From assembly GCA_050943375.1 (NCBI GenBank), contig JBMNPB010000001.1:102278-166277 (forward strand): a stretch of DNA of 64,000 nucleotides. Reading direction: 5' to 3'. A program made the position numbers and the translations under genes. The DNA comes from a bacterium (GTDB taxonomy: Bacteria; Bacillota; SLNR01; JBMNPB01). This document shows positions 10,670 through 63,152 of this stretch, piece after piece (the first letter of the stretch is position 1; each line of letters starts with the position of its first letter). The notes under the pieces are model-generated. The model worked only from the letters and a program-made list of their open reading frames with translations. It did no database searches and was not told the DNA's origin.

Positions 10670-10925
10670 AATAAACATCAATAATAATGACAACAGCAAA
10701 GAAAGGGAGAAGTAGACTGTTTTCACCGTCAGAGAAGGAGGTGTCAGGTGTAAGCCTCCCCGGTTGGAAACTCTCGAAGGTCGCCTTGGAGCTTCCGGGC
10801 TGAAGGCAGTAAGCCCGGGCGGGTACGCCCGTTACTGCGCCGAGTGTCCCGGCCCCGGTCGGGGAACTAAGGTGGTACCGCGGAAATGAACCCTTTCCGT
10901 CCTTATGGGCGGCGAGGGTTTTGTT
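10670..10925 (+). promoter_or_regulatory. T-box riboswitch leader of valS (with intrinsic terminator 10891-10925)
   Basis: AGAGA (GA/K-turn) box at ~10731. AGTA-like box (gcagtaa). Conserved T-box sequence aactaaGGTGGTACCGCGg at 10865-10883. A terminator hairpin ccctttccgtcc/gggcggcgaggg plus a U-run follows directly. Sits upstream of an aminoacyl-tRNA synthetase gene. Confidence 0.8.
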
Positions 10926-10959: not shown

Positions 10960-13620
10960 ATGACTGCGCAAAAAAATTTGCCGACGGTCTATGACCCGAA
11001 GGCGGTCGAGAGCAAGTGGTATGATTATTGGCTGACCGAGAAATATTTTCACGCGGAAGTAGACAAGGACAAAAAACCGTACAGCATTGTCATTCCGCCG
11101 CCGAATGTTACCGGCTCTCTTCATATGGGCCACGCCCTGAACAATACTCTGCAGGACATCCTCATCCGCTGGCACAGGATGCTGGGCGAAAATGTCGTCT
11201 GGATTCCCGGCACGGACCACGCCGGCATCGCAACCCAGGTAGTTGTGGAGAGGGAACTGGCCAAGGAAGGGAAGACCAGGCATGATCTCGGCCGGGAAGC
11301 TTTTATCGAGCGAGTCTGGCAATGGAAGGAGCAATACGGCAACAGAATTATCGAACAGCTGCAGCGGCTGGGGACGTCCTGTGACTGGGACCGGGAAAGG
11401 TTCACTATGGATGAGCGCTGCTCCCGGGCGGTCCGGGAAGTTTTCGTCCATCTATACGAGAAAGGTCTGATTTACCAGGGCGACTTTATCATCAACTGGT
11501 GCCCCCGCTGTCTCACCGCCCTGTCGGATTTGGAGGTGGAGCATAATGAAACCGGCGGTCGTCTCCATTATGTCCGCTATTCCCTGGCAGACAGCGATGA
11601 GTCCATCATGGTGGCGACGACGCGGCCGGAGACAATTCTCGGGGATACCGGCATTGCCGTACACCCGGAAGATGAGCGGTACCGGCATCTGATCGGCCGC
11701 AATGCTCTCCTGCCGCTGCTGAATCGGGAATTGCCGATTATTGCCGACGATTATGTAGACCCGGAGTTCGGGACCGGAGCCGTCAAAGTCACTCCGGCTC
11801 ACGACCCGAACGACTTCGCCATGGGCGAGCGGCACAACTTGCCGAGCGTGGTGGTCATCGACGAGAAAGGCGGCATGAACGAAAATGCCGGTAAATACGC
11901 CGGGATGGATCGTTACGAATGCCGCCAGGCGATTCTGGCGGACCTGAAGACAATGGGATTCCTGGTGAAAGTGGAAGAACACACTCATGCCGTCGGACAT
12001 TGCTCCCGTTGCGATACAGTGGTTGAGCCAATGCTCTCCAAACAATGGTTTGTGAAAATGCAGCCTCTGGCCGAGCCGGCCATGCAGGTCGTCCGGGAAG
12101 GTAAGATCAAATTCGTCCCGGAACGGTTCGCCGATACTTATCTTTATTGGCTGGAGAATATTCACGATTGGTGCATTTCCCGCCAGCTCTGGTGGGGACA
12201 CCGAATCCCGGCGTGGTACTGCCGGGACTGCGGGGAAGTGCTTGTCGCGAAGGAAGATCCGACCCAATGCGGCAAATGCGGCGGCAAAAATCTCGTGCAG
12301 GACCCGGATGTGCTGGATACCTGGTTCAGTTCGGCCCTCTGGCCTTTCTCGACTCTCGGGTGGCCAGACGAAACACCGGAACTGGAGCATTTCTATCCAA
12401 CGTCGGTGCTCGCTACCGGCTACGATATCATCTTCTTCTGGGTTGCCCGGATGATTTTCATGGGCCTCGAGTTCCGGCAGGAAATTCCGTTCCATGAGGT
12501 GTTCATCAATGGACTGATTCGGGACGCGGAAGGGAAGAAAATGAGCAAGTCGCGGGGCAACACCATTGATCCCCTCGGCATTATCGAGCAGTACGGGACG
12601 GACACGCTGCGCTTCACTCTCGTGACCGGCAGTTCGCCCGGCAACGATATTCGCCTGTTCACGGAAAAATTCGAGGGTATCCGTAATTTCGCCAATAAAA
12701 TCTGGAACGCGTCCCGCTTCGTGCTGATGAATCAGGACGATACGGACGCCGGGCTGGCGGTCCCGGCACCGGAACAGCTGACCCTCGCCGACAAATGGAT
12801 TATCGGCCGGTACAACTTCGTCGCCGGTGAAATCACCCGCCTCCTGGCGCGCTATGATTTCAGCGAGGCGAGCAAAACATTATACGACTTCATCTGGAAC
12901 GAATATTGCGACTGGTATATTGAATTGGCCAAGCCGCGGCTCTACGGGAAGGAGAACGCCGCCGACCGGAAAACAGCCCAGGCCGTCCTCCGGTATGTCC
13001 TGAGCAATACCTTGAAGCTGCTACACCCCTTCATGCCCTTCATCACCGAGGAAATTTGGCAGGCCCTGCCGCACGACGGGGAAAGCATCATGGTCAGTCC
13101 CTGGCCGGAGCCGGAAATTGCGTCTGACCCGGCGGCGGAAGCGACGATGGAATTGTGCATGGAAGTCATCAAGTCCATCCGGAGCATTCGCGCCGAGATG
13201 GGTGTCGCTCCCGGTAAGAAAGCGGATGTTATCCTGCAGGCGGCGGAGGCGGGCGTCTACGCTGATCTGGAAGCAGGCTTGGGATACATCGAGCAGCTGG
13301 GCAGCGCGGCCGCTTTGACATTGACCCGGACGCTGGCGGAAAAACCGCGCAATGCGGCGGCTGCCATCACCCGGGGCGTGGAAATCTATCTGCCGCTGAA
13401 AGGTCTGATCGATATCGACAAGGAAATTGGTCGCCTGGAAAGCGAACTTGCGACTGCCCGGGCCGAAATCGGTCGGGCCGCGGGCAAACTCGCCAACACT
13501 GGTTTTCTGGCCAAGGCTCCGGCGGAAGTGGTGGAGAAGGAGAAAGCGAAGCAGGCGGAATATCAGGAGAAGGAAAGCAAGATCAAAGCGAGAATAAGAC
13601 AGCTCAAAGAGATGGCGTAA
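10960..13620 (+). CDS. valS: valyl-tRNA synthetase
   Basis: Class I HIGH (…SLHMGHA…) and KMSKS motifs, CP1 editing domain and C-terminal coiled coil. ATG 10960 with RBS gggagga. The ORF-track start 10921 lies inside the T-box terminator and is rejected. Confidence 0.95.
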
Positions 13621-13635
13621 GGTGAAGAGAAGCGA

Positions 13636-13677
13636 GGGAGAGACGATCGGCGCAGCCCGGCCGTCTCTCTCTTTTTG
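13636..13677 (+). terminator. rho-independent terminator after valS
   Basis: 10-bp stem gggagagacg/cgtctctctc followed by ctttttg. Confidence 0.7.
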
Positions 13678-13843
13678 TCCGCTCAAGGCTGATCGAACAT
13701 AGCTGTCTGTTTGCTGTGACACTCGGCGCTACAAAGCATCCGCACTCCGGGCGGGCAGTTGGCGAGGCTGCTAACGAGGTGCCGGGAGAAAAGAATCTCG
13801 GCTCTGTATCCGGCGGCGGAAACCCTCGAAGATTATTAATGCT

Positions 13844-13887
13844 TGTCTTACTTTTCTTGGTGCTGCACCGCTCTTCTGTGCTATAAT
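13844..13887 (+). promoter_or_regulatory. orphan extended -10 promoter (TGcTATAAT) in the valS-folC spacer
   Basis: tgctataat at 13879-13887. About 30 nt downstream are RBS aagggga and ATG 13919, which opens a 68-aa basic ORF. Confidence 0.35.
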
Positions 13888-14416
13888 AATGGCAGGGGAT
13901 TTCTAAGGGGATTGAAGAATGAAAAGCGCTGGAATTTTTTCCTTACATCAGAAGATGTCCGGGCGAAATATGGGTGGAACGGGCAAGCGGTTTGACGCTG
14001 CCGTCAATAAGATGGTGCGCTGCCTGAGCACACGTAAGACTGGGCTCGCGCTCTTGCCGCCGGTCACGAGCTGCCGAATGAAAACTTTGCCGCATTGGAA
14101 AAGGAAACAGACTTTTCGGCCGTGAAGGCAGAAGATGTAAAAGTAATTCCCCGGACAAGAGGTGAGTACCCTGGACAAAAGAGTAAGCGCCTTGGATGAG
14201 AAAGTGAGTGCTTTGGACGGTGAATTTGCAGCTACAAAACGGGCGTTTGTTACCCGGACGAGTGAATTCGAAGGTGATTATGGCGGAGTATATGCTGGGC
14301 GCCGACGCCAGGCTAAATGAGCATGAAGCCATCCTGCAACGGGTGCAGCGAGATTATTCCTGCCAGATGCTCCGGAGGTAATTCCGGGGCATTGTTGTAT
14401 AAGGGGAAAGAGGAGG

Positions 14417-15712
14417 TTGAGCATGAATTACCAGGAGGCGCTGGAATACATCCACGGTCTGCAGCAATTCGGGATCAAGCCGGGTTTGGCGCGAATGGAG
14501 GCCTTGCTTGAGCATCTCGGCAATCCGCATCTCGCTTATCCGTGCATCCACATCGCCGGGACGAACGGCAAAGGTTCAGTGACGGCAATGGTCACCTCTA
14601 TTCTCCGGGCGGCGGGGATAAAGACGGGACGCTACACGTCCCCAGCTTTGCAGAAATTCAATGAGCGCATCAATTTCGACGGAGCCGATATCCCGGACGC
14701 GGCGTTGGCCGCCCTGTTGACTGGTGTCCGGCCGGCGGTGGCAGCCGCGGCGGCAATTCCGGGCGGTGAACATCCGACGGAATTCGAAGTCGTCACGGCC
14801 GCCGCCTTCGAGTATTTCCGGGCGGTGGAGGCCGAGATTGCGGTGCTGGAAGCCGGCCTGGGCGGCCGTCTCGATTCCACCAATATCATCCCGACGCCGC
14901 TGGCGGCGGGAATCACCAATGTAGCCTTCGACCACATGAATGTCCTGGGCGACACGATCGAAGCGATTGCGGCGGAAAAAGCCGGGATTATCAAGAAGCG
15001 GGGAATGGTGGTCACCGGGGCGGAGGATCCGGCGGCCCTTGCGGTTATCCGGTGCGTCTGCCGGGAAAAAGAAGCCGGGCTGTGGGTGGTGGGCGAAGAC
15101 ATCCGGGCGGCAGCCGGGCCGGGCGGACGGCTCTCGCTGGCAACTCCGCGGCGGACGCACGAAGATTTAACCCTTTCCTTGGCCGGGGCGCATCAGCTGC
15201 GCAACGCCGCTACCGCGGTTGGGATTATCGACGCGCTTAGCCGGAGCGGAACCGATATTGACGCGGAAGCCGTTGCCAAAGGCTTGGCCGCCGTAACATG
15301 GCCCGGCCGTCTGGAAATAGTTCAGCACAATCCGACAGTTGTCCTGGACGGCGCTCATAATCCGGACGGCGCTCGCGCCTTAGGCCGGGCCTTGCGGAAT
15401 GCGTTCCGGTATGAGCGGCTCATTCTGGTCCTCGGTATTCTGCGGGACAAGGCGTACCCTGAGATGCTCGCGATTCTCGCGCCGCTGGCCGACACGCTTA
15501 TTCTGACTAAACCCGACAGCCCGCGGGCGGCAGAGCCAGAAGAACTGCAGGTGATCGCTGCCCGGTTCCAGAGCGATATCCGCTTGCAGGCAACAGTCGG
15601 GCAAGCGGTCGACGCGGCTTTGCGAATCGCCCGTCCGACCGACCTTGTGTGCATTGCCGGGTCTTTGTATACAGTCGGCGCAAGTCGCGATAGATGGCGA
15701 AAGCCATTGTAA
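14417..15712 (+). CDS. folC: folylpolyglutamate synthase / dihydrofolate synthase
   Basis: Mur-ligase family P-loop (…GTNGKGS…). valS-folC adjacency as in Bacillus. RBS gaggagg. Confidence 0.9.
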   Translation: MSMNYQEALEYIHGLQQFGIKPGLARMEALLEHLGNPHLAYPCIHIAGTNGKGSVTAMVTSILRAAGIKTGRYTSPALQKFNERINFDGADIPDAALAALLTGVRPAVAAAAAIPGGEHPTEFEVVTAAAFEYFRAVEAEIAVLEAGLGGRLDSTNIIPTPLAAGITNVAFDHMNVLGDTIEAIAAEKAGIIKKRGMVVTGAEDPAALAVIRCVCREKEAGLWVVGEDIRAAAGPGGRLSLATPRRTHEDLTLSLAGAHQLRNAATAVGIIDALSRSGTDIDAEAVAKGLAAVTWPGRLEIVQHNPTVVLDGAHNPDGARALGRALRNAFRYERLILVLGILRDKAYPEMLAILAPLADTLILTKPDSPRAAEPEELQVIAARFQSDIRLQATVGQAVDAALRIARPTDLVCIAGSLYTVGASRDRWRKPL

Positions 15713-15718
15713 CATAAT
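15383..15718. repeat. direct repeat copy 1 (native folC 3' end), paired with 22786-23125
   Basis: ~340 bp. The distal ~250 bp are >90% identical to 22870-23125. Similarity ends exactly at the folC stop codon. Confidence 0.85.
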
Positions 15719-15941
15719 AAAGAAATGGTTCTTGCTGTGTTTCTGTGTGTCTGCGGGCAATTTGCCGGCTAATGGCATCAATCACGTCCGCCGGTAACCG
15801 GCGGGGGCGGGCAAGGGAATAATGAATCTGCTATGTATCGGATTGTGGATGTGATCAGAAGCGACGGTTTGGGGGCTGATCGGGCTGCCGCCCGGATTTT
15901 TTGCATCAGAGCCGAGAATAAGCAGGAAAAAAGAAAACAAT

Positions 15942-16100
15942 GGCGAATCATAGCAATATGCATCATGAAACATATAGGTAAAATTTAATATTATTTTTTA
16001 AAATTCAATATGCATTAACAAACATAATAAAAATATATGTATTAAACATAGTTATTAAAGGTTAAGTAAATCTATCTAATACATTAGAAGATATAAAGCA
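15942..16100. repeat. ~50-bp motif (ggcgaatcatagcaatatgcatcatgaaacata … tagaagatataaagca) split by a 110-bp AT-rich insert; second uninterrupted copy at 16865-16916
   Basis: Direct comparison of the two regions. The insert 15975-16084 is ~20% GC in a ~60% GC genome. Confidence 0.6.
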
Positions 16101-16250
16101 GAATGTCCGTTTCCGATCGTATCTCACCCCTCGGTGAAAAGGACGGATACGGCATTAAGGGGCAAAATTGTGTGCTGCCAGGCCTGGGCAGCTCGCTTCC
16201 GGTAAACATGGAAGCCATCAGGTTCATAGAGACTTGTTAGGAGGATAAGC
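16100..16250 (+). promoter_or_regulatory. structured 5' leader (putative riboswitch, class not identified) of the ECF S-component gene
   Basis: A nested or pseudoknot-capable set of helices: gtccgtttc/gaaaaggac, cgtatc/gatacg, cccct/agggg, gctgcc/gggcagc and gcttcc/ggaagc. These sit immediately upstream of the RBS aggagga. ECF S-component genes are typically riboswitch-controlled. Confidence 0.35.
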
Positions 16251-16808
16251 ATGAACAAAACAGTTGCCTTTATCACTAAAACCGCGATGCTGCTGGCATT
16301 AACTGTCCTGTTCCAGTCGCTGCGGGTTATTATCCCGATGCCGGCGTCGCTCAGCCAGTTTATCGCCGGTTCTCTGGTCAATATGTCGCTGATTATTGCC
16401 GGCGTCACCATTGGCATTCGGGGCGGCTTGGCCGTCGCCGTGCTCACTCCGGTTGTTGCTTTGCTGCATGGTTTTATCGGCAACCCGGTCCTGGTTCCTT
16501 TTGTTGCTCTCGGCAATGTGATTATCGTCGTCATTGTCCCCTTGCTTTACCACTCCAATCGACACTTGGCCGTCATCGCCGGAGCCGCCGCCAAATTTGT
16601 CACGCTTTATCTGCTGATCGTGAAATTTGCTTTTCCGGTCCTGCTGGCACCATCGTTGCCGGCGCCGCAGGCATCTAAGATGATTGGCGTGCTTTCTTAT
16701 CAATTTTCCTGGCTGCAGTTCGTCACGGCTTTGCTGGGTGGGGTGCTGGCTATGATAATTCTGCCTTGGCTGGTTAGGATAAACAATCAGCCGGGTGCAA
16801 AGTTCTGA
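16251..16808 (+). CDS. ECF-transporter S-component-like small membrane protein (substrate unknown)
   Basis: 185 aa with ~5-6 TM helices and an N-terminal MNKT…TKTAMLLALTVLF signature typical of ECF S components (ThiW/QueT/RibU-like). RBS aggagga. Confidence 0.7.
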   Translation: MNKTVAFITKTAMLLALTVLFQSLRVIIPMPASLSQFIAGSLVNMSLIIAGVTIGIRGGLAVAVLTPVVALLHGFIGNPVLVPFVALGNVIIVVIVPLLYHSNRHLAVIAGAAAKFVTLYLLIVKFAFPVLLAPSLPAPQASKMIGVLSYQFSWLQFVTALLGGVLAMIILPWLVRINNQPGAKF

Positions 16809-17343
16809 CACCTTTGCCGGGCGGCTGGCTGCTACGGCAAGGCAATGCGTGCGAATAAAGGAAAGGCGAATCTCATCAATATGCATGACAAAACATAGCG
16901 GTAGAAGATAAAGCATAAAAAGAGGATATCCATGTAACTTCCCTGCTTGGTATAATGTAATCTTCCCCGGTGCGAAAACAGTTGAATGCACATCGGCGTT
17001 TCCCGACTTGGCGGCAGGCGTGGCGCCGGAGAAGCGACGGGGAGGGCCAATGTATGTCTCGGTGCGCCCAAAAGGGGGAAGACGCGCTTCCAGTTAACCG
17101 TAGCGCTGCAATATTTACAGACAACGGCCTTGAGAGATCTGTCCAACAAAATTAATTATGCTAATAAAAAATGCTGAAGGAATAGAGGATTTGCTAATTC
17201 ACAGATATCTACTGCAGTCAAATTCCTGCCGGAGTGAAGGTAACAACCGGGCGAAAGGTGGTGACGTTTAGTAAAAGTCGGACTCTTATGTTCTTGCATG
17301 AATCGGGACTGAAAATTGTTGGGACAGAAGGAGGTTATCAAGT

Positions 17344-17835
17344 ATGGCAGAGGTATGCAAATACTGCGGTGACCGGCAAGTAGAGATGTATAAGGCTTTG
17401 GACAAGGTCATCGCGGAATACAAGGGCAAGCCCGGAGCGCTGATTCCGGTATTGCACCAGGCGCAGCAAATCTTCGGCTGCCTGCCTAAGGAAGTTCAGA
17501 TCCATGTGGCTGAAGGCTTGGACGTTCCGCTGGGCGACGTGTACGGAGTAATCACCTTTTACGCCTTCTTCTCTATGAAGCCGAAAGGGAAATACCAGAT
17601 CGGCGTCTGCATGGGTACGGCCTGTTATGTCAAAGGAGCGGTCAAAGTTCTGGAAGCATTGGAACAGCAGCTGGGAATAAGGCAGGACGATACCACGGAA
17701 GACGGCAAATTTTCGCTTGAGGTGCTGCGCTGCATCGGCGCCTGCGGTCTGGCGCCGGCCATCAAAATCAACGATGAAGTCTACGGCCGGATGACGGCGG
17801 GCAAAGTGGCCGAAGTATTGGCGAAATACGCCTGA
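17344..17835 (+). CDS. hydC: NuoE-like [2Fe-2S] subunit of NADH-dependent [FeFe]-hydrogenase (HydC/HndA-type)
   Basis: Thioredoxin-like [2Fe-2S] NuoE family motifs (…GTACYVKGA…RCIGACGLAP…). RBS gaaggagg. First gene of a hydrogenase operon. Confidence 0.9.
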   Translation: MAEVCKYCGDRQVEMYKALDKVIAEYKGKPGALIPVLHQAQQIFGCLPKEVQIHVAEGLDVPLGDVYGVITFYAFFSMKPKGKYQIGVCMGTACYVKGAVKVLEALEQQLGIRQDDTTEDGKFSLEVLRCIGACGLAPAIKINDEVYGRMTAGKVAEVLAKYA

Positions 17836-17850
17836 GGTCGGAGAAAGTCG

Positions 17851-18405
17851 ATGCGCGAACTGTCCCTACATATCATTGATATCCTGGAGAATTCCCGAAC
17901 GGCGGGGGCAACGCGAATTGACTTAGCCATCCGGCTCGATTCGGCGGCCGACCGGCTGACTATCCGGGTCACGGACAACGGCAGGGGCATGGACGCCGAG
18001 ATGGTCCGGCGGGCGACCGACCCGTTTGTGACTACCCGGACGGCGCGGAAGGTCGGTTTGGGGCTGCCGCTCTTAGCGGCGGCGGCAAGCCGCTGCCACG
18101 GCGATCTGTCGATTGTCTCGGAGCCGGGCAAGGGCACAAGCGTGACGGCGTTGTTTCAGCACAGTCACATCGACCGGGCGCCGCTGGGAAATATCATCGA
18201 TACCGTAACCGTATTCATCAGCGGTAATCCCGAAATCGCATTTATTCTTCGTTACAGCGTGGACGGCCGGGAAATGCGGTTGGACACGGCGGAATTGCAG
18301 GCAGAATTAAGCGATGTATCACTGAGCCACCCTTTGGTGGCCGGTTGGATAAAGCAGTACCTGCGGAAGAAATTGATTGAATTACGCGGAGGTGAAGATT
18401 GGTGA
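17851..18405 (+). CDS. GHKL (histidine-kinase-like) ATPase-domain protein embedded in the hydrogenase operon
   Basis: HATPase_c motifs (N-box …IDLAIR…, G-boxes DNGRGM and GLGLPL, GKGTSV). No HisKA or receiver domain. Similar proteins sit between hydC and hydD in Thermoanaerobacter-type hydrogenase clusters. Confidence 0.75.
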   Translation: MRELSLHIIDILENSRTAGATRIDLAIRLDSAADRLTIRVTDNGRGMDAEMVRRATDPFVTTRTARKVGLGLPLLAAAASRCHGDLSIVSEPGKGTSVTALFQHSHIDRAPLGNIIDTVTVFISGNPEIAFILRYSVDGREMRLDTAELQAELSDVSLSHPLVAGWIKQYLRKKLIELRGGEDW

Positions 18406-18764
18406 AGTCGTTGGCGGAATTGGCGGAATTACGAAAGAAGGCGCAAGAAATGACCCGGCTGCGGGAAGGAGACGCGCCGTTGAAAGTAGTGGTCGGTATG
18501 GGCACTTGCGGTATCGCGGCCGGAGCGAGAGATACGATGGCGGCCATTCTGGACGAATTGGCCCAGCATAATAGGGATGATGTAACGGTAACCCAGACGG
18601 GATGCGCTGGGCGGTGCGAGATGGAACCGCTGGTGGAAGTGTGCGAACCGGGCCAGCCCAAAGTCACTTACGGCAAGGTGACTCCAGAGAGAGCCCGCCG
18701 CATAGTCGCCGAGCATATCGGCAGCGGCCGGATAATCGAGGAGTGGGTCGTAGCTAAGCAGTAA
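18399..18764 (+). CDS. hydD: thioredoxin-like [2Fe-2S] ferredoxin subunit (HydD/HndB-type)
   Basis: 121 aa. Cys motifs CGIAAG…C…C typical of NuoE-like/HndB ferredoxins. TTG/GTG start after RBS ggaggtg. Confidence 0.8.
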   Translation: MVKSLAELAELRKKAQEMTRLREGDAPLKVVVGMGTCGIAAGARDTMAAILDELAQHNRDDVTVTQTGCAGRCEMEPLVEVCEPGQPKVTYGKVTPERARRIVAEHIGSGRIIEEWVVAKQ

Positions 18765-18904
18765 AGCATTTTCCCCTGCAAGGGAAAGTTCGGCTTTTCA
18801 CAAGCATCTAACAATCGCTCCGTCTGGCGGATAATACCGGCGGCGGACAAGGCACGAGAACACCGGGTAGTACAGAAAAGCCCGGGCTAAAGGAGGGCAA
18901 TATT

Positions 18905-20698
18905 ATGGACAGGGTTAGGGCGCACGTTTTGGTTTGCGCCGGGGCCGGCTGCATTTCCTCCAACTGCAAGGCGGTGGAGGAGGCCCTGGTCGATGAACTG
19001 GAGAAACAGGGGCTGGCGCAGGAAGTTAAAGTAGTTGAAACCGGCTGCATCGGCACCTGCGAGCTTGGCCCCATCATGGTAATTTACCCGGAAGGGATAT
19101 TTTACTGCAAGCTTAGGCCGGAAGACGCCAGGGAAATTGTCAGCGAGCACCTGCTGAAAGGGCGCCGGGTGGAGCGGCTGATGTACCGGCGGCCGGGCAG
19201 CGATATACCCATCGAAGCTGTCGACAATATCGACTTTTTCCGCAAGCAGGTACGGATTGCCCTGCGGAACACCGGTATCATCAATCCGGAAATCATCGAG
19301 GAATATATTGCCCGGGACGGTTACGCCGCTCTCGGCAAAGTGCTCACGGAGACGACTCCGGCGGAAGTCATTGATATAATGAAGAAGTCGGGCTTGCGGG
19401 GACGCGGCGGCGCCGGTTTCCCGACCGGCCTCAAATGGGAGTTTACGGCGAAAGCGAAAGGAACTCCCAAATACATTGTCTGCAACGCGGACGAAGGCGA
19501 TCCGGGTGCTTTTATGGACCGGAGCATTCTGGAAGGCGACCCGCACAGCATTATTGAAGCGATGGCCATCGCCGCTTATGCGGTGGGGGCAAACCAGGGC
19601 TATGTCTATGTCCGGGCTGAGTATCCCCTGGCAGTGGAAAGATTGAGCCAGGCGATCGGCAAGGCAAGAGAATACGGCCTGCTGGGCAAGAATATCCTTG
19701 GCACGGGATTTGATTTCGACCTGGAAATCCGGATCGGGGCCGGCGCTTTTGTATGCGGCGAAGAAACGGCACTGCTCGCCTCCATCGAAGGCAATCGCGG
19801 CGAACCGCGGCCGAAGCCGCCGTTCCCGGCGAACGAAGGAGTCTGGGGCAAGCCGACTTTGAACAACAATGTGGAGACTTACGCTAATGTTCCGGCGATA
19901 ATTCTCAAAGGCTGGGAATGGTATTCCGGCATCGGAACGGAGAAAAGTAAAGGCACGAAGGTTTTCGCCCTCGCCGGCAAGTGCAACACGGCGGGGCTTG
20001 TGGAAGTGCCGATGGGTACGACGCTACGGGAGATTATTTACGATATTGGCGGCGGTATCCAGGGTGGCAAGAAGTTCAAGGCGGCCCAGATCGGCGGACC
20101 TTCCGGCGCCTGCCTGACGGCCGAGCATTTAGACCTGCCGATGGACTATGAAAATCTGAAGGCGGTAGGTGCCATGGTCGGCTCGGGCGGCCTGATTGTT
20201 ATCGACGAGGACAACTGCATGGTTGACGTGGCGAGATTCTTCCTCGACTTCACCCAGGATGAATCCTGCGGGAAATGCGTGCCTTGCCGGATCGGGACGA
20301 AGCGGATGCTGGAAGTCCTGAACCGGATCTGTGAAGGAAAAGGTGAAGAAGGCGATATCGATAACCTGTATGAGTTGGCCAAAGTCATCAGCGGCTCCGC
20401 CCTTTGCGCGCTCGGTCAGACGGCACCAAACCCGGTGTTGAGTACGATTAAACACTTCCGGGATGAATATGAAGCGCACATTAAAGAGAGGCATTGTCCG
20501 GCGGGTATTTGTAAACCGCTCATCACATACACCATTAATCCCGCTGTCTGCCGTGCCTGCGGACTGTGCGCCAAGGCCTGCCCGGTAGAGGCCATCAGCG
20601 GGAAAGTGAAGGACAGCTTCGCCATTGGCCAGGCGAAATGCATTAAATGCGGCACTTGCCTGGAAAAATGCCCGTTCGGAGCAATTGAGAAAAAATAA
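18905..20698 (+). CDS. hydB: NuoF-like NADH-binding flavo-FeS subunit (HydB/HndC-type)
   Basis: N-terminal thioredoxin-like domain, then a 51-kDa NADH/FMN fold (GLRGRGGAGFPTGLKW) and SLBB domain. [4Fe-4S] NuoF motif (CGKCVPCR) and two C-terminal ferredoxin-type CxxCxxCxxxCP motifs. Confidence 0.9.
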   Translation: MDRVRAHVLVCAGAGCISSNCKAVEEALVDELEKQGLAQEVKVVETGCIGTCELGPIMVIYPEGIFYCKLRPEDAREIVSEHLLKGRRVERLMYRRPGSDIPIEAVDNIDFFRKQVRIALRNTGIINPEIIEEYIARDGYAALGKVLTETTPAEVIDIMKKSGLRGRGGAGFPTGLKWEFTAKAKGTPKYIVCNADEGDPGAFMDRSILEGDPHSIIEAMAIAAYAVGANQGYVYVRAEYPLAVERLSQAIGKAREYGLLGKNILGTGFDFDLEIRIGAGAFVCGEETALLASIEGNRGEPRPKPPFPANEGVWGKPTLNNNVETYANVPAIILKGWEWYSGIGTEKSKGTKVFALAGKCNTAGLVEVPMGTTLREIIYDIGGGIQGGKKFKAAQIGGPSGACLTAEHLDLPMDYENLKAVGAMVGSGGLIVIDEDNCMVDVARFFLDFTQDESCGKCVPCRIGTKRMLEVLNRICEGKGEEGDIDNLYELAKVISGSALCALGQTAPNPVLSTIKHFRDEYEAHIKERHCPAGICKPLITYTINPAVCRACGLCAKACPVEAISGKVKDSFAIGQAKCIKCGTCLEKCPFGAIEKK

Positions 20699-20752
20699 GG
20701 ATGCCGCCAAAGGGCAACGGAAGGCATTCAAAAAGAAGGAGTGTGTAAGGCA

Positions 20753-22480
20753 ATGGTATCGCTGAACATCGACGGGCGGAACGTCAGCGTTGAACCCGGG
20801 ACGACTGTGCTGCACGCGGCAGAAAAAGCCGGGATTCACATTCCGACCCTTTGTTATCTGAAAGACATCAACTGCATCGGCGCCTGCCGGGTTTGCGTAG
20901 TGGAAGTCGAAGGCGCTCGGGCGCTGCAGACCGCCTGCACTTATCCGGTGGCGGAAGGCATGGTCGTGAAGACCAACACCCCGGCAGTGCGGGCGGCGAG
21001 GAAAGCGGTAGTCGAATTAATCTTGTCCGACCACCCCCAAGACTGTCTGACTTGTTTCCGCAATCAGAACTGCGAGCTGCAGAAACTGGCCCAAGATCTC
21101 AATGTCCGGGAAGTCCGTTTCGCCGGCGAACAGACCCATCATCCCATCGATGCCTCCAGCCTGGCAATCGTCCGTGAACCGGACAAATGCATTCTTTGCC
21201 GGCGCTGCATCAGTGTCTGCCAGCAAGTGCAGGGCGTTCACGCCATCGGAATGGCGGAGCGGGGCTTCAAAAGCCTCGTCACCCCGGTTTTCGGGGAGGA
21301 CTTGGCTGACGTCGCCTGCGCCAATTGCGGCCAATGCGTTCTCGCCTGCCCGACCGGCGCTCTGCACGAGAAAGACGATACCGATAAAGTCTGGGCGGCC
21401 TTGACCGATCCGACGAAGCATGTCATCATTCAGACGGCTCCGGCCGTCCGGGTTGCAGTGGGCGAGGAGATGGGAATGGAGCCCGGGAGCCTCGTTACCG
21501 GCAAGATGGTGGCTGCGATCCGGCGGCTTGGCTCTGACAAAGTGTTTGACACCGACTTTACGGCCGATCTGACGATAATGGAAGAAGGGCACGAATTGCT
21601 GCACCGTTTGAACAACGGCGGCAAGCTGCCGATGATCACCTCCTGCAGCCCCGGCTGGATCAAGTATATTGAGCATTTTTACCCGAATCTTCTGGAGCAT
21701 CTCTCGACGTGCAAATCACCGCAGCAGATGTTCGGGGCACTGGCCAAGACGTATTACGCGGAGAAGGAAGGCATCGACCCGAAAGATATTGTCAGCGTTT
21801 CGGTAATGCCCTGCACGGCGAAGAAGTTCGAAGCCAAGCGGCCGGAAATGGATGACAGCGGCTATCAGGATGTGGATATCGCGATTACGACCCGGGAACT
21901 GGGCAGGATGTTCCGGGAAGCTGGGTTAGATTTTGCGAATCTGCCGGAGGAAGAATACGACGCTCCGCTGGGAATCAGCACCGGCGCCGGTGTTATCTTC
22001 GGCGCGACGGGCGGCGTCATGGAAGCGGCCCTGCGCACGGTGTACGAAGTCGTGACCGGCAAGACGCTGGAAAAAGTCGAGTTCACGGCGGTCCGGGGCC
22101 TGGAAGGCATCAAAGAAGCAACGGTTCAGGCTGGTGACATACCGGTGAAGGTGGCGGTAGCGCACGGCCTTGCCAATGCCCGGAAGATAATGGATCTGAT
22201 TCAAGACGGAAAAGCCGATTATCAATTCATCGAAATCATGTGCTGCCCGGGCGGGTGTATTGGTGGCGGCGGCCAGCCAATCCCGACCAATACCAAAATA
22301 CGCGGCAAGCGGGCGATGGCCATCTACACCGCGGATGAACTCTCAGTTATCCGCAAATCCCATGAAAACCCGGCGGTGCAGACATTGTACAAAGAATTCC
22401 TGGAGAAGCCCCTCGGGGAAAAATCCCATCATCTGCTGCACACTCATTACACGAAGCGGCCAAAATACCCGAAGGTTTAG
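20753..22480 (+). CDS. hydA: [FeFe]-hydrogenase catalytic subunit with NuoG-like N-terminal FeS domains and variant H-cluster motifs
   Basis: N-terminal 2Fe-2S and 4Fe-4S domains. H-cluster motifs: L1 ITSCSPGW (21632-21658), L2 MPCTAKKFE and L3 EIMCCPGGCIGGGGQP. ATG 20753 with RBS aaggag. Confidence 0.9.
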   Translation: MVSLNIDGRNVSVEPGTTVLHAAEKAGIHIPTLCYLKDINCIGACRVCVVEVEGARALQTACTYPVAEGMVVKTNTPAVRAARKAVVELILSDHPQDCLTCFRNQNCELQKLAQDLNVREVRFAGEQTHHPIDASSLAIVREPDKCILCRRCISVCQQVQGVHAIGMAERGFKSLVTPVFGEDLADVACANCGQCVLACPTGALHEKDDTDKVWAALTDPTKHVIIQTAPAVRVAVGEEMGMEPGSLVTGKMVAAIRRLGSDKVFDTDFTADLTIMEEGHELLHRLNNGGKLPMITSCSPGWIKYIEHFYPNLLEHLSTCKSPQQMFGALAKTYYAEKEGIDPKDIVSVSVMPCTAKKFEAKRPEMDDSGYQDVDIAITTRELGRMFREAGLDFANLPEEEYDAPLGISTGAGVIFGATGGVMEAALRTVYEVVTGKTLEKVEFTAVRGLEGIKEATVQAGDIPVKVAVAHGLANARKIMDLIQDGKADYQFIEIMCCPGGCIGGGGQPIPTNTKIRGKRAMAIYTADELSVIRKSHENPAVQTLYKEFLEKPLGEKSHHLLHTHYTKRPKYPKV

Positions 22481-22600
22481 GCAGGTGGAAAGGGGAAGCG
22501 GGGAGGAGAGAAAACATTGCCTTACCTGCTCTCTGGATGGGCGACAAAGAAAAGGCCGAGGCGGCCCAATCTCCCCGGCAACACTTAAAAGCAAAGAACG

Positions 22601-22644
22601 GGACTGTTCCCTTCCGGCAAGGAGGAGGACAGTCCTTTTATTTG
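22601..22644 (+). terminator. rho-independent terminator after hydA
   Basis: Long bulged stem ggactgttccctt/aaggaggaggacagtcc followed by ttttatttg. Confidence 0.6.
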
Positions 22645-22785
22645 ATGGATATGCTTAGCCAGGGCGGAAGTAATGAGATGATATTAACTGTCTCCAAAAA
22701 ACCGCCGCCCGCAATCTGACTGCTGCCGGGAGGTAAGCGGCGCAAGCGGACCGTCATCCCCGGGCAGCCCGTAGACATAGGCAAG

Positions 22786-23125
22786 CGCATCTCTGCGCCA
22801 GGCATAGCGGGAGGCGTTCAGGTACGAGCGGCTCGTTCTGGGCCTCAATTTCCTGCGGATAAGGCGTACCCTGAGATGCTCGCGATTCTCGCGCCGTTGG
22901 CCGACACGCTTATTCTGACTAAACCCGACAGCCCGCGGGCGGCAGAGCCGGAAGAACTGCAGGTGATCGCTGCCCGGTTCCAGAGCGATATCCGCCTGCA
23001 GGCAACAGTCGGGCAAGCGGTCGACGCGGCTTTGCGCATCGCCCGTCCGGCCGACCTTGTGTGCATTGCCGGGTCTTTGTATACAGTCGGCGCAAGTCGC
23101 GATAGATGGGGAAAATCGGCTTAAA
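22786..23125 (+). pseudogene. displaced partial copy of the folC 3' end (codons ~323-431), paired with 15383-15718
   Basis: The 82-aa ORF 22876-23124 is near-identical to the FolC C-terminus (MLAILAPLADTLILTKPD…SLYTVGASRDRW). It has no 5' part of the gene and no RBS. Confidence 0.8.
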
Positions 23126-23388
23126 ACAAAGATTACCCGATAACAACTGCTTTGACTTTTCGGGCTTTTTTAGCTAAGATGAAACTTAAAGAGAGCAGTC
23201 GGAGCAGCCAAATTACACCAAAGCGGAAATTAACTGTCTGTTGCAGGGATTCCGCAAAATTTGTCTAACACATAAATAGTTCAAAACATCACAAAATATT
23301 TTGTCGTCGACGGGCGGCAATATTATGATTGCAAAATTAGTATATATTTAATATCATTGCCGGGCGGGCGATTGGGGAGGTTAGAAAT

Positions 23389-23742
23389 TTGCCTCTTGTT
23401 CTTGAAGATGTTCGTCGTATTCTGGACGCGGAAATCATCAGCGGGGAAGAGAGGCTGGAGCGCCCAGTCGCTACGGTTTGCGCCTCCGATATGATGAGCG
23501 ATGTCCTAACGGTTGCCAAGGAACACGCAATCCTGCTTACGAGTCTCGCCAATCAGTATGTCATCCGCACGGCCGAAATAACCGATCTGGATGCGATTGT
23601 GTTTGTCTGCGGCAAGCGGCCGGATGCTGCCGCTACCGCTTTGGCCCGCCGAGTCGGCATGCCCCTTATGGCGACCGGCAAAACAATGTTTGAAAGCTGC
23701 GGCCTGTTGTATGGACATGGATTTAGGAGTGTTGCGCAGTAA
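23389..23742 (+). CDS. DRTGG-domain protein
   Basis: 117 aa. DRTGG-type fold signature (…DMMSDVLT…AILLTSLAN…DLDAIVFVCG…). TTG start after RBS ggggagg. Confidence 0.7.
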   Translation: MPLVLEDVRRILDAEIISGEERLERPVATVCASDMMSDVLTVAKEHAILLTSLANQYVIRTAEITDLDAIVFVCGKRPDAAATALARRVGMPLMATGKTMFESCGLLYGHGFRSVAQ

Positions 23743-23777
23743 AGCGGGGCGGTCTGGGAGCAGTGGGAGGAAAAAGA

Positions 23778-24245
23778 ATGGCTGGCGAGGAAAGTAGCGG
23801 GAGAAAGTCCGCCCCTGTGCTGACAATGTCGTTCCCGGTCAACTACCGGAACTTCGGAGCGGTCGGGGAAGCCGCCAGCCGAATTAAGACCGCGCTTCAA
23901 AAAATCGGCGTACCGCCTCCGATTATCCGACGGGTGGCAGTTGCCGCTTATGAAACGGCAATGAATATCGCAATTCACGCCGAGCGGGGCGACCTTATCT
24001 TAATCATCAACCCCGACTGCATCGAGATTTTAGCGGAAGACACCGGAGCCGGAATTGCTGATTTGGAGATGGCCATGCAGGAGGGGTATTCGACTGCCCC
24101 CGATTATATCCGGAAAATGGGTTTCGGTGCCGGAATGGGACTGCCCAACAGCAAGCGCTGTGCCGATATATTTGAACTCCGCTCTCAACTCGGCAAAGGT
24201 ACGACAGTCTACATCCGGATTAATGTTCCGGAACAAGCCGAATAA
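23778..24245 (+). CDS. GHKL ATPase (anti-sigma-factor/RsbW-SpoIIAB-like HATPase_c) protein
   Basis: HATPase_c N-, G1- and G2-boxes (…AYETAMNIAIHA…, DTGAGI, GFGAGMGL). ATG 23778 with RBS gggagg. Confidence 0.7.
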   Translation: MAGEESSGRKSAPVLTMSFPVNYRNFGAVGEAASRIKTALQKIGVPPPIIRRVAVAAYETAMNIAIHAERGDLILIINPDCIEILAEDTGAGIADLEMAMQEGYSTAPDYIRKMGFGAGMGLPNSKRCADIFELRSQLGKGTTVYIRINVPEQAE

Positions 24246-24313
24246 CGATGAAAAGAAACAGCCGGCTCGGTAACGCCCCGGGCCGGGGAGAGAAGGCAAG
24301 CGAGGTGAGAAGA

Positions 24314-24652
24314 ATGAAACTGGGAGACCTGGCCAGGGAGCTAGGTCTGCGGGTCTGCAGCGGACAGGAGTATCTGGAGCGAGAAGTGACCGGGGGTTAT
24401 TGCTCGGACATGCTCAGTGACGTCATGGCTCATGCGCAGGAAGGCAATATTTGGCTGACTATCCAGACTCATCAGAACATCGTCGCGGTGGCTTCTCTCC
24501 TCGGGCTGTGCGCCATTGTTATTACCGGCGGTGGTGAACCGGATGCGGACACGCTGGGAAAAGCCCAAAAAGAGGAAGTCGCTATTCTTACCACTGCGTG
24601 GTTTTCATTTGAAACAGGCGGCCGGATTTATCAACTGCTGGCCAAAGGATAG
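24314..24652 (+). CDS. DRTGG-domain protein (second copy)
   Basis: Paralogous to 23389-23742 (…GYCSDMLSDVMA…IWLTIQTHQN…AIVITGG…). ATG 24314 with RBS gaggtgag. Confidence 0.7.
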   Translation: MKLGDLARELGLRVCSGQEYLEREVTGGYCSDMLSDVMAHAQEGNIWLTIQTHQNIVAVASLLGLCAIVITGGGEPDADTLGKAQKEEVAILTTAWFSFETGGRIYQLLAKG

Positions 24653-25079
24653 CCGCGGCAAAATTACGGCCGGGCATGCTGAAAGCTTTGTGGCGCCGGA
24701 GCCGAAATGCCGGCGATACGATATCGCCCAGATTGGGGCGGAAAGAGTCAGCATAATTACTGACGACCGCAAAAGAGATCTGCTCGTCAGAGTTTTCGAC
24801 GTCCGCTGACCAGAAGTTTCAGACCGGGAGCGAACGCAGATTGGAACGGCTGAATCGCTACGGTAAAATCAGCCCCGCTGTACGGACCGAGCAGAATGAA
24901 AAGGTGGTGATAGCCAGTCATATGCGCGCCAGTATCCGAAAGCCGGAGTTTTTCACCCGGCACGAAAGCTTCTCCGGGATATTTGCGGAACTGGTTCTAT
25001 CAGATTTGAGTAATACCGCCGGGTCAGGCAGCGCGAGTTGCCGGTTTTCCTGAATAACCGCCTCTGTTTGGGTCTGCAA

Positions 25080-25114
25080 TTATGGCTGAAATATGAGAGC
25101 GGCTATGGTATAAT
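25080..25114 (+). promoter_or_regulatory. extended -10 promoter (TGgTATAAT) upstream of the fdh module
   Basis: tggtataat at 25106-25114. Weak -35. Confidence 0.4.
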
Positions 25115-25158
25115 GCCAGCGTGTGTGCAATTTTTCACAAATTTTGCTCAAATCCATA

Positions 25159-25677
25159 ATGAAGCTGAGGGAGGTGTTTTCATTGGCAAAACGCAAGACG
25201 GTTGTACCGTTTCAGGGCACAGCAGAGCAGGAAGCGAAGCTTCTGGAGATTATCGAGAAGCATAAAGGGGTGCAAGGCGCATTGATGCCGGTCCTGCAGC
25301 AGGCCCAGGATCTTTACGGCTATCTTCCCATCGAGGTCCAGAGAATCATTGCCGATAAGATGGGCTTGCCGCTGTCGGAGGTCTATGGCGTAGCTACGTT
25401 CTACGCACAGTTCACTCTCAATCCGAAAGGCAAGCACCAGATTGCAGTCTGTCTGGGGACTGCTTGCTATGTAAAGGGTTCGGGCGCGGTGATTGAACGT
25501 ATCGGCCAGAAGCTCGGCATCGAACCGGGCGGGATTACCCCGGACGGCTTGTTCTCGCTGGAGGCGACACGTTGCATCGGCGCTTGCGGACTGGCGCCGG
25601 CGATGACCATCGACGGCAAGGTTTACGGCCGCCTGACTCCGGCAGATGTGGATGAAATCATTGATTCATACAAGTAG
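25159..25677 (+). CDS. NuoE-like [2Fe-2S] subunit (paralog of hydC) of the formate dehydrogenase module
   Basis: Same NuoE signature (GTACYVKGS…RCIGACGLAP). Start ambiguous: ATG 25159, or TTG 25183 after gagggagg. Confidence 0.85.
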   Translation: MKLREVFSLAKRKTVVPFQGTAEQEAKLLEIIEKHKGVQGALMPVLQQAQDLYGYLPIEVQRIIADKMGLPLSEVYGVATFYAQFTLNPKGKHQIAVCLGTACYVKGSGAVIERIGQKLGIEPGGITPDGLFSLEATRCIGACGLAPAMTIDGKVYGRLTPADVDEIIDSYK

Positions 25678-25738
25678 GACGAGTCTTGGCTTTAACGACT
25701 CGCAGCAATTGTGAAAAATCATAAGGAGGTGTATTCCT

Positions 25739-27598
25739 ATGAAATCCCTGGCGGAACTTGCCGAATACCGGGAAAAAGTGAAGGCTGAATGCAATTTGCG
25801 TCAAGACAAATCGGACGACACGCGGGTGTTGGTCGGTTATGCGACATGCGGAATTGCAGCCGGCGCTACCCCGGTGCTGGACGCCTTTATCGAAGAAGTT
25901 GGCAAACGTCGACTCCCGAAAGTGATGGTGACCCAGACCGGCTGTATCGGTATCTGTAAGCTCGAACCAGTGGTGGAAATCCTCGAGCCCGGCAAAGAAA
26001 AAGTGACCTATGTGGAATTGACTCCGGATAAGGTGGAAAAAATCGTCACAGAGCATCTGCAAAACGGCCGGGTGGTCGATGAATACACGATCGGCGCCCA
26101 TGAGGAAGGCATCCAGAGTCTGAACGACAGCAAGTTTTACAAGAAGCAGCGACGCGTGGCGCTGCGGAACTCCGGAATCATCAATCCAGAGTCAATCGAC
26201 GAATACATCGCCCGTGACGGTTATGAAGCGCTCGGGCGCGTGCTGACCAGCATGCAACCGGAAGACGTCATCGCTACCATCAAGAATTCCGGCCTGCGTG
26301 GCCGTGGCGGTGCCGGCTTCCCGACCGGCCTGAAGTGGCAGTTCGCTGCGGCCAGCCCCGGACCGGTGAAATATGTCTGCTGCAACGCCGACGAAGGCGA
26401 CCCCGGCGCGTTCATGGACAGATCGGTGCTGGAAGGCGATCCCCACGCTTTGCTGGAGGCGATGACTATCGCCGGTTACGCCATAGGTGCGCATCAAGGA
26501 TATATCTATGTCCGGGCTGAGTATCCGACCGCAATCAAGCGCCTGCAGATCGCTATCGACCAAGCGCATAAATACGGTTTCCTGGGCAAAAACATCTTTA
26601 ACACCGGTTTCGATTTTGATCTGGAACTGAGGCTTGGCTCGGGTGCGTTCGTGTGCGGCGAGGAGACGGCGCTGATGATCTCCATCGAAGGTAAGCGCGG
26701 TGAGCCCAGACCCCGGCCGCCTTTCCCGGCAGTCAAAGGTCTGTTTGACAAGCCCACTATTCTGAACAACGTTGAGACTTACGCTAATATCCCGCGCATT
26801 ATTCTGAACGGCGCCGACTGGTTCTCCGCCGTCGGAACCGAAAAATCGAAAGGCACCAAAGTGTTCTGCCTGGTCGGCAAAATCAACAACACCGGCTTGG
26901 TGGAAATCCCGATGGGTACAACTTTGCGGGAGGTAATCGAGGAAATCGGCGGCGGCATCCAGGGCGGCAAGAAATTTAAGGCAGCGCAGACCGGCGGTCC
27001 CTCGGGCGGCTGCATCCCCGCATCCTTAATCGATACACCCATCGATTACGATAACCTCGTCGCCATCGGCGCGATGATGGGCTCGGGCGGTCTCATCGTT
27101 ATGGATGAGGACACATGCATGGTGGACATCGCTAAGTTCTTCCTGGAATTCACGGCCGAGGAGTCCTGCGGTAAGTGCACACCCTGCCGCATCGGAACGA
27201 AACGTCTGCTGGAAATGCTCGAGAAGATCACCCGTGGCGAAGGCACACTGGAACTGCTTGACGACATGGAAGAGCTGTGTAACGGCATCAAAAACAACAG
27301 CCTTTGCGCCCTCGGTCAGACAGCCCCGAACCCGGTTCTGTCAACGCTGCGCTATTTCCGGGATGAATATGTTGCCCATGTGGTCGACAAAAAATGCCCG
27401 GCTGGTGTTTGTAGGGATCTGCTGTCCTATGAGATTGACGCCGACAAGTGCATCGGCTGCACGGCTTGTGCCAGAGCCTGCCCGGCGGGTGCCATCTCCG
27501 GCAAGGTTAAGGAAAAGCATGTTATCGATAAGGCCAAGTGCATCAAGTGCGGCGCTTGCCTCGAAGCTTGTAAGTTCGGCGCCGTCGCCAAGAAATAA
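25739..27598 (+). CDS. NuoF-like NAD(H)-binding flavo-FeS subunit with fused N-terminal thioredoxin-like ferredoxin domain (paralog of hydB)
   Basis: GLRGRGGAGFPTGLKW, CGKCTPCR and C-terminal 2x[4Fe-4S] motifs. Collinear with 18905-20698. Confidence 0.9.
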   Translation: MKSLAELAEYREKVKAECNLRQDKSDDTRVLVGYATCGIAAGATPVLDAFIEEVGKRRLPKVMVTQTGCIGICKLEPVVEILEPGKEKVTYVELTPDKVEKIVTEHLQNGRVVDEYTIGAHEEGIQSLNDSKFYKKQRRVALRNSGIINPESIDEYIARDGYEALGRVLTSMQPEDVIATIKNSGLRGRGGAGFPTGLKWQFAAASPGPVKYVCCNADEGDPGAFMDRSVLEGDPHALLEAMTIAGYAIGAHQGYIYVRAEYPTAIKRLQIAIDQAHKYGFLGKNIFNTGFDFDLELRLGSGAFVCGEETALMISIEGKRGEPRPRPPFPAVKGLFDKPTILNNVETYANIPRIILNGADWFSAVGTEKSKGTKVFCLVGKINNTGLVEIPMGTTLREVIEEIGGGIQGGKKFKAAQTGGPSGGCIPASLIDTPIDYDNLVAIGAMMGSGGLIVMDEDTCMVDIAKFFLEFTAEESCGKCTPCRIGTKRLLEMLEKITRGEGTLELLDDMEELCNGIKNNSLCALGQTAPNPVLSTLRYFRDEYVAHVVDKKCPAGVCRDLLSYEIDADKCIGCTACARACPAGAISGKVKEKHVIDKAKCIKCGACLEACKFGAVAKK

Positions 27599-63076: not shown

Positions 63077-63152
<76 letters not shown>

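Follow-up and report, generated by a model that had tools for sequence, protein, structure and literature searches.

In the window analysed here, a stretch of 64,000 nucleotides (nt) from a bacterial contig (JBMNPB010000001.1 of assembly GCA_050943375.1, positions 102,278 to 166,277 of the forward strand), the 3' end of folC, the gene for dihydrofolate synthase (FolC), is present twice in direct orientation. Copy A is the end of the functional folC, and copy B, the fragment folC', follows behind an energy-coupling factor (ECF) transporter S-component gene (ECF-S) and a hydrogenase operon, hydC-GHKL-hydD-hydB-hydA. Copy B is probably the original folC 3' end; it would have been stranded when the lineage rearranged its own genes long ago, and gene conversion would have altered it afterwards. 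A first-pass annotation of the same DNA had seen in the duplication the scar of a site-specific integration and in the enclosed DNA a decayed or domesticated island; this mobile-island view is largely refuted by the data described below.

A repeat search of the window placed the two copies at 15384-15702 and 22797-23114, almost where the first-pass annotation had put them (15383-15718 and 22786-23125), and BLAST gave the same picture. The repeat consists of two parts of uneven similarity. The distal part (15445-15702 vs 22857-23114) comprises 258 nt with 97% identity, in line with the >90% claimed earlier for the last ~250 bp, whereas the 62 nt of the 5' part (15384-15445 vs 22797-22858) are only 79% identical. 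The parts are offset by a 1-nt deletion near 22857 in copy B, and BLAST merges them to a single match of 319 nt at 93.4%. This similarity is far above chance. Near-identity does not extend exactly to the folC stop codon, as had been stated, but ends at 15697/23109, 15 nt (four sense codons and the stop) short of the end of the frame. Copy A ends with TGG CGA AAG CCA TTG TAA and copy B with TGG GGA AAA TCG GCT TAA, with the stop codons at homologous positions; the tail of copy B reads GGAAAATCGGCTTAA and is followed by the flank from 23125 on. Copy B also carries an in-frame TAG at 22805-22807. Upstream of 22797, neither BLAST nor local alignment found a significant extension of copy B; a colinear 17-mer (22653-22669 vs 15235-15251, 15/17 matches, z 5.5) and a 160-nt stretch in the colinear test (z 3.8) are only suggestive of a possible decayed extension up to about 22645. 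The complete folC is a clear member of its family (378.9 bits against TIGR01499, cutoff 162.65). Its product is identical over 100% to the database protein P0001, for which the start is annotated at 14423 (429 amino acids).

Which of the two ends is the older one became apparent from the nearest relative, whose FolC (P0002) is 73% identical and was the only near one in a collection of 5.8 billion proteins; among species-representative genomes scanned with FolC there was no near relative, the best match being 47%. The locus of this relative (Joint Genome Institute (JGI) dataset 3300022181) was built from three contigs (L005, L006 and L007), chained by 100% overlaps, and has the order valS-orf-folC-DRTGG-GHKL-HydS-DRTGG-PHP-hydC-GHKL-hydD-hydB-hydA-spacer-hydD'-hydC'-hydB'-hydA'-rnfC-like. 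Here folC is directly followed by the homolog of the region that starts at 23.1 kb in the window, the synteny that the first-pass annotation had proposed to look for: window positions 22811-24242, copy B together with its flank, are colinear with the folC 3' end of the relative, the spacer behind it and the DRTGG and GHKL genes. In a three-way alignment copy B ends with W-G-K-S-A-stop and the relative with W-G-K-T-A-stop, whereas copy A has R-K-P-L. Of the last 10 nt, copy B shares 8 and copy A 5 with the relative; copy A is derived at 15698, 15703 and 15707-15709, and copy B agrees with the relative at these sites. The DNA downstream of copy A is likewise new compared with the relative's locus. 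Because both its tail and the blocks downstream of it match the relative, copy B is the original gene end and copy A the repaired one. Compared with the ancestral layout, the 7.4-kb segment thus sits between a repaired and an original folC end.

The genes enclosed by the repeat are also found in the relative. There the hyd orthologs belong to the same locus and follow ~3.5 kb downstream of folC, and nucleotide identities are 72-82.5% for the hyd genes and 70.5-81.8% for valS, folC and the regulator genes; at the amino acid level HydA is 88%, HydB 86% and ValS 86% identical. G+C content at third codon positions (GC3, 0.67-0.70) and codon usage (r 0.91-0.92) of hydB and hydA are like those of the flanking genes, so that the comparison of composition suggested by the first-pass annotation yielded native values and no foreign signal. 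The relative's ECF-S ortholog (P0122, 69% amino acid identity) is located on another contig, Ga0228535_1000079, between the gene of a PAS protein and a MacB-type ABC system. Homology to that locus is limited to the coding sequence (16239-16765). Since the enclosed hyd genes diverge from the relative as much as the flanks do and have the same codon usage, they are native; by orthology, the hyd and ECF-S genes are best described as genes that moved within the lineage's own genome. Relatives that carry the duplication with the hyd genes elsewhere had been named as possible counter-evidence to the island. The relative does have its hyd genes elsewhere, downstream in the same locus, but lacks the duplication.

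For the direction of the change, 80 HydA loci were compared. At least 10 distant loci have the regulator block directly upstream of hydC..hydA and in the same orientation, and none of the 80 had a regulator block after hydA or an ECF-S gene beside hydC. The literature on HydS agrees with a position of the regulator genes upstream of hydABC (PMC8163306). Because the outgroup loci have the regulator block upstream of hydC..hydA, the gene order in the window is, judged from this comparison, the derived one. Compared with the relative and the at least 10 outgroup loci it corresponds to an exchange of two adjacent blocks, and folC', a pseudogene with a TAG and an indel, stands right after the hydA terminator and spacer, at the junction.

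The second part of the interpretation, gene conversion, is based on the distribution of differences along the repeat. Copies A and B differ at 13 of 62 positions in the 5' part and at 8 of 257 in the distal tract (Fisher p=1e-5). When the 5' part was polarised by the relative, 4 changes were derived in A and 8 in B. A variant of folC' in a biogas-fermenter assembly (L093) has the TAG and the ancestral tail in common with copy B, as well as the sites that are derived in its 5' part, though not the window's 1-nt deletion, and must therefore go back to this old duplication too. Copy B groups with the variant at 7 sites outside the tract. Within 15472-15690, the window's copies A and B have five derived states in common, at which the variant keeps the state of the relative. 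The identity discontinuity along the repeat is thus accompanied by conflicting trees, ((B,L093),A) outside and ((A,B),L093) inside the tract, and because of this conflict we assign a gene conversion to the window lineage, at a time when the strains had already split. Further, the folC-derived part differs between strains at 13 of 252 positions and the adjacent spacer at 1 of 234 (p=0.002), and in a third dataset (SRR24902075, contig L089) six of the 13 mismatches fall within 13 nt at the end of the fragment. Both strain patterns are consistent with a history in which conversion and recombination produced a mosaic. The contig of this third dataset was also considered as proof of an un-rearranged allele and was rejected as such, as it begins inside folC'.

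A separate observation concerns the FolC C-terminal tail, which is hypervariable among close strains (15680-15712 / 23092-23124) next to a spacer that is ~99.6% identical. The tails read ASRDRW+RKPL in copy A, ASRDRW+GKSA in copy B, ATRARWGKSA and AARARWGKSA in the two other strains (L093 and L089, respectively) and EARAKWGKTA in the relative.

From these data we infer which duplications, deletions and insertions took place, how many there were and in which order they came. Ancestrally, valS-folC would have been followed by two blocks, the regulator block DRTGG-GHKL-HydS-DRTGG-PHP and the operon hydC-GHKL-hydD-hydB-hydA, which were swapped in the window lineage, with the folC 3' fragment travelling along with the regulator block. 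The first step would be a tandem duplication that reached from the middle or late part of folC to the hydA terminator. In a second step the first copy would have lost the regulator block by a deletion that clipped the last four codons of folC, and the gap may have been filled by the 1.6 kb that now hold the relocated native ECF-S gene. The second copy would then have lost HydS and PHP-hydCDBA (step 3), and the folC fragment at the duplication junction would have become a pseudogene. In a fourth step, conversion with the intact folC would have overwritten ~250 nt (15449-15697, 22861-23109), probably in the direction from folC to the fragment. That conversion overwrote only this stretch would explain why the tract is 97% identical and open, whereas the 5' part is 79% identical and contains a stop.

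Several points weigh against this reconstruction. It takes several events, since besides a duplication at least three losses are needed and ECF-S must have arrived, and the mechanism that brought ECF-S and its AT-rich flanks is left unexplained by it. No genome with the postulated intermediate, in which both copies are complete, was found in the searched collections, and in 15703-17343, 22481-22800 and 24653-25122 nothing recognisable was left of HydS, PHP, DRTGG or hyd genes. The polarity depends on one near relative and distant outgroups. With regard to conversion, copy A differs from both copy B and the biogas-fermenter variant at three positions inside the tract, 15538 (A), 15584 (T) and 15638 (A), for which one has to assume either later changes in A or patchy conversion. 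Recombination between strains is moreover not fully separable from conversion within the genome, as the two other strains were compared by their copy B only.

Among the alternatives, a Campbell-type single crossover fares best, although we consider it rather unlikely. A circular or otherwise incoming DNA molecule, of the same or a very close lineage, that carried folC-3'(RKPL)-ECF-S-hydCDBA-terminator would have entered a chromosome with folC-DRTGG-GHKL-DRTGG-NuoE', and a crossover within the folC 3' region would have duplicated the homologous stretch, the resident hyd genes being absent or lost. Such a crossover yields direct repeats of exactly the homologous stretch around the insert and predicts an ancestral 3' end in the right copy and an insert-derived one in the left, as observed; the donor could then be the source of the 79% identical 5' part of copy B. 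On the other hand, a donor that already had the adjacency of folC, the novel segment and hyd is needed, together with a recipient that already lacked hyd, which amounts to as many events plus a transfer. The donor arrangement was not seen among the 80 HydA loci. As the hyd genes diverge like the flanks, the donor would have to be of the same lineage, and homologous crossover at ~79% identity is inefficient. This route was rated below duplication and loss because its donor must be already rearranged.

Another possibility, compatible with an origin by rearrangement, is that folC' has been kept for a function. As claimed by the first-pass annotation, the fragment keeps an open frame of 82 codons, and no sigma-70-like promoter was detected between hydA and this frame in a promoter scan; a well-spaced Shine-Dalgarno sequence is missing as well. 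Almost all of the frame lies in the conversion tract, and its product matches, in Pfam, only the distal half of Mur_ligase_C. A variant occurs in another metagenome (P0168, on contig L093), so that the frame is intact in two strains, and the differences are mostly synonymous: five synonymous and two non-synonymous between copies A and B, and 13 nt differences with 3 residue changes in the folC-derived stretch compared with P0168. Conversion from a gene under selection gives the same synonymous bias, and we attribute both the open frame and the mostly synonymous differences to conversion from the selected folC, for which no selection on the fragment is needed. The strong terminator upstream, the encoding of only half a domain, and the TAG and indel in the 5' part likewise speak against selection, and it is quite improbable that folC' was maintained by it, whether as a substrate for recombination or, if expressed, as a mini-protein of 82 amino acids that corresponds to the Mur-ligase C-terminus. 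Marginally more credence, but still little, may be given to the wider proposal that folC' is either a mini-protein gene or that the 258-nt repeats are kept as a RecA-driven switch for the reversible deletion or amplification of the 7.4-kb cassette. If such a switch existed, deletion of the ECF-S and hydrogenase cassette would restore an intact folC with the ancestral tail.

The island proposed by the first-pass annotation, integrated site-specifically at the folC 3' end with a replacement end and foreign cargo, now seems very unlikely. Direct repeats of a gene 3' end surround the segment, the uninterrupted folC-DRTGG junction of the relative resembles an empty site, and the last four codons and the stop were indeed supplied by the intervening DNA; this part of the claim holds, whereas a site-specific mobile island is not supported. 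The absence of a recognisable integrase was borne out by Pfam, which found no domain, and hence no integrase or transposase, in the tested spacer open reading frames (ORFs), including the small ones; all annotated genes are accounted for, and neither a recombinase gene nor a remnant of one is present in the segment. The novel spacer showed no similarity to plasmids or phages. The cargo consists of native orthologs rather than of DNA that is foreign by orthology or composition, and the relative keeps its hyd genes in the same locus. The repeat of ~320 nt has uneven identity and the segment ends do not share a short exact attachment-site core. The only compositional oddity of the enclosed segment, which could be cited for the island, is a 160-nt stretch with 20% GC before the ECF-S gene (15930-16090). 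A literature search for folC as an integration target of islands returned nothing relevant. Gene-end duplication alone is thus not evidence of a mobile island, and a false lead has been removed.

Finally, an assembly artefact was considered, as the source is a metagenome-assembled genome and short-read unitigs break at the repeat. However, one JGI contig (L004, window 13369-16331, 99.97%) spans the whole of copy A with unique flanks and another (L092, window 21917-23428, 100%) does so for the whole of copy B, reaching from within hydA to within the DRTGG gene. In Logan contigs (k=31) of run SRR31066179, which like JGI dataset 3300061563 belongs to the source sample, two contigs start 30 nt before the first 3' difference between A and B, as expected at a branch point at this k, and take branch A (L090, 15668-21636) and branch B (L088, 23080-26404), each with 100% identity in this independent assembly. 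The adjacency of ECF-S and hydC was confirmed by a contig of run ERR10905743 (L091), and folC' is present in at least three datasets or strains, the window and the two further datasets (L093 and L089) from other projects. Small ORFs next to the junctions, used as queries, led to no contigs beyond these. The 5' boundary of copy B lies in 79%-identical sequence, where there is no k-mer overlap for a false join. Because separate contigs span each copy with unique flanks, misassembly by a chimeric join or by collapse of the repeat, which the first-pass annotation had named as a caveat, is excluded, and the chance that the feature is an artefact is negligible.

The positions of all features are compiled in the table.

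Features of the folC region and the rearranged segment (window coordinates).
Feature	Position	Strand	Basis
Functional folC (FolC/dihydrofolate synthase)	14417..15712	+	Pfam Mur_ligase_M, Mur_ligase_C; TIGR01499
Repeat copy A, native folC 3' region	15384..15702	+	Repeat search, BLAST, alignments
Subdivision of copy A: old diverged part; gene-conversion tract	15384-15448; 15449-15697	+	Alignments
Novel folC 3' end, R-K-P-L-stop, left rearrangement junction	15698..15712	+	Three-way alignment with relative
Segment E, novel DNA without counterpart here in relative	15713..17343	+	Comparison with relative's locus
58-nt direct repeat, copy 1 (partner 16854-16911, 74%; the pair flanks the ECF-S gene)	15931..15988	+	
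ECF transporter S-component gene	16251..16808	+	Pfam PF12822
hydC(NuoE-like)-GHKL ATPase-hydD-hydB(NuoF-like)-hydA operon	17344..22480	+	Pfam, NF040763, orthology
Intrinsic terminator of hyd operon, hairpin 22600-22636 then UUUUAUUU	22600..22644	+	Folding
Repeat copy B, folC' pseudogene, orphaned ancestral folC 3' end	22797..23124	+	Repeat search, alignments
82-codon open frame inside folC'	22876..23124	+	ORF list; Pfam
Ancestral folC-DRTGG intergenic region	23125..23388	+	Colinear with relative's spacer; promoter scans
DRTGG-GHKL-DRTGG regulator genes	23389..24652	+	Pfam; orthology to relative (66%, 70%, 81% amino acid identity)

The gene content that had been claimed for the enclosed DNA (ECF S component, AT-rich insert, hyd genes) was confirmed by Pfam. 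HydA scored 949.8 bits against the curated model NF040763 (FeFe_hydrog_A6, cutoff 765), and the neighbouring NuoE-like hydC and NuoF-like hydB match PF01257 and PF01512/PF10589, respectively. With a HydA that passes this model and adjacent NuoE-like and NuoF-like genes, the operon is predicted to encode an NADH-dependent group A6 [FeFe]-hydrogenase of the HydABC type. The terminator hairpin with its U-tract behind hydA has a calculated folding energy of -26.4 kcal/mol (z -3.1).

Segment E between folC and hydC holds a terminator-like hairpin (15880-15902), the stretch with 20% GC and the ECF-S gene, and shows no homology to the relative's locus except for the ECF-S coding sequence. Its last 535 nt upstream of hydC are new to the hyd operon. 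The 21-nt motif CAATATGCATnAnnAAACATA occurs at 15954-15974, 16006-16026 and 16877-16897, three times in the 64 kb where none is expected, and is common to the ECF-S promoter region and the new upstream region of hydC; it is not present at the relative's ECF-S locus. The motif within the 58-nt repeats is a candidate for a duplicated promoter or operator that would be common to ECF-S and the relocated hyd operon, and the regions with the CAATATGCAT motif are candidate start areas of the hydC and ECF-S transcripts. The riboswitch-like leader of the first-pass annotation was not recovered: neither the ECF-S leader nor the rest of 15650-17400 matched Rfam at E<=1, and the fold of the leader is unremarkable (z -1.2). 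In the relative, the leader of the ECF-S ortholog is another one, which has a terminator-like hairpin and no credible Rfam match. The ECF-S gene is now located directly after folC, and a role in folate uptake (FolT-like) would fit functionally, but it has no NCBIfam match and no tetrahydrofolate riboswitch.

Downstream of folC', the ancestral folC-DRTGG spacer is otherwise only 61% identical to that of the relative, but two elements are conserved. These (contig L005, about 11340-11500, in the relative) are a promoter-like TTGACT-17-TAAGAT (23152-23180) and the block TAGTTCAAAAnATCACAAA (about 23266-23290), the latter being a candidate operator that resembles half a Rex box. By orthology, the following DRTGG-GHKL-DRTGG genes are the remains of the hydrogenase sensory/regulatory module. 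HydS, a sensory [FeFe]-hydrogenase-like protein of 461 amino acids, and PHP have no ortholog in the whole 64-kb window, and their genes occur in the relative and many outgroups. The regulator genes are now separated from hydCDBA by folC' and stand upstream of NuoE'-NuoF'-FdhA.

The cluster at 25123-31900 comprises NuoE'-like, NuoF'-like, fdhA, mobA-like and fdhD genes. In fdhA (27762-30461; TIGR01591), one frame with an in-frame TGA at 28830-28832 (HCARL-U-HSPTVA) indicates a selenocysteine-containing formate dehydrogenase alpha subunit. Elsewhere in the window, a T-box leader is found upstream of valS (10690-10907; Rfam RF00230, 126.8 bits), an L21 leader at 55886-55957 and tRNA-Ala(GGC) at 63077-63152.

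The relative has a second hydrogenase cluster, hydD'-hydC'-hydB'-hydA', in the place where the window has folC', the regulators, NuoE'F'-FdhA-mobA-fdhD and a membrane protein. There, hydD and hydD' share 97% identity along 343 nt; this is a further case of local duplication or conversion, and the assembly breaks at it. The locus has the look of a hotspot at which NuoE/F-type modules are reshuffled. The relative further contains a ~330-nt repeat (74%), downstream of hydA (L006:4167-4494) and between the ABC-ATPase and NMT1 genes (L005:4108-4431), which may be a small repeated or mobile element; the window is without the corresponding 556-nt stretch (9452-9466).

With respect to function, folC would stay intact with a changed tail of four residues, in a region that is variable among strains anyway. 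The hyd operon would have been uncoupled from its sensory/regulatory module, with the regulators now preceding the NuoE'F'-FdhA genes. Such a naturally occurring separation of a bifurcating-type [FeFe]-hydrogenase operon and the HydS/DRTGG/PHP sensory module predicts that H2 and formate metabolism are regulated differently in this lineage, which is Bacillota-like, uncultured and found in anaerobic digesters. Between the 258-nt direct repeats with 97% identity, RecA could mediate the loss or amplification of the 7.4-kb segment; a FolC variant of the deletion type is not on record, the P0001 cluster consisting of a single member sequence. The locus is an unusually clean bacterial case of gene-order change by duplication and loss, in which the relic is still evolving with its parent gene across strains.

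The proposed history follows the model of gene-order change by tandem duplication-random loss, which is established for animal mitochondrial genomes (PMC5745709, PMC4223735). Two swapped adjacent blocks, a partial duplicate in the form of a pseudogene and unexplained non-coding spacers are features in common. In contrast to that model, the chromosome is bacterial here and no intermediate was seen; moreover, ECF-S, an unrelated relocated gene, fills one of the loss sites, and the relic was later converted. Concerted evolution by gene conversion is known from duplicated tuf genes and from silent pilS cassettes. As in these systems, the tract has a sharp boundary and paralogs in one genome share derived states that another strain lacks. 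There is, however, no sign that the silent folC' donates variation, and it is most simply regarded as a passive recipient.

Genes of HydS-type sensory [FeFe]-hydrogenases and kinase-like regulators have been described upstream of the trimeric bifurcating HydABC (PMC8163306). The relative and many outgroup loci match this layout exactly, and the window's HydA passes the A6 model; the window differs by the loss of HydS and PHP and by the position of the remaining regulators, behind folC' and before NuoE'-NuoF'-FdhA. Prophages, integrative and conjugative elements and genomic islands insert at the 3' end of tRNA or protein genes and restore the gene with an element-borne copy. With such elements the window shares the direct repeats of a gene 3' end around an insert, a gene end on the insert side and the uninterrupted junction in a relative. 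It differs from them by the lack of a recombinase, by a ~320-nt repeat that is a 79%/97% mosaic, and by native cargo and composition. The duplicated folC end is therefore a new example of known processes, duplication-loss and gene conversion, and not a mobile element.

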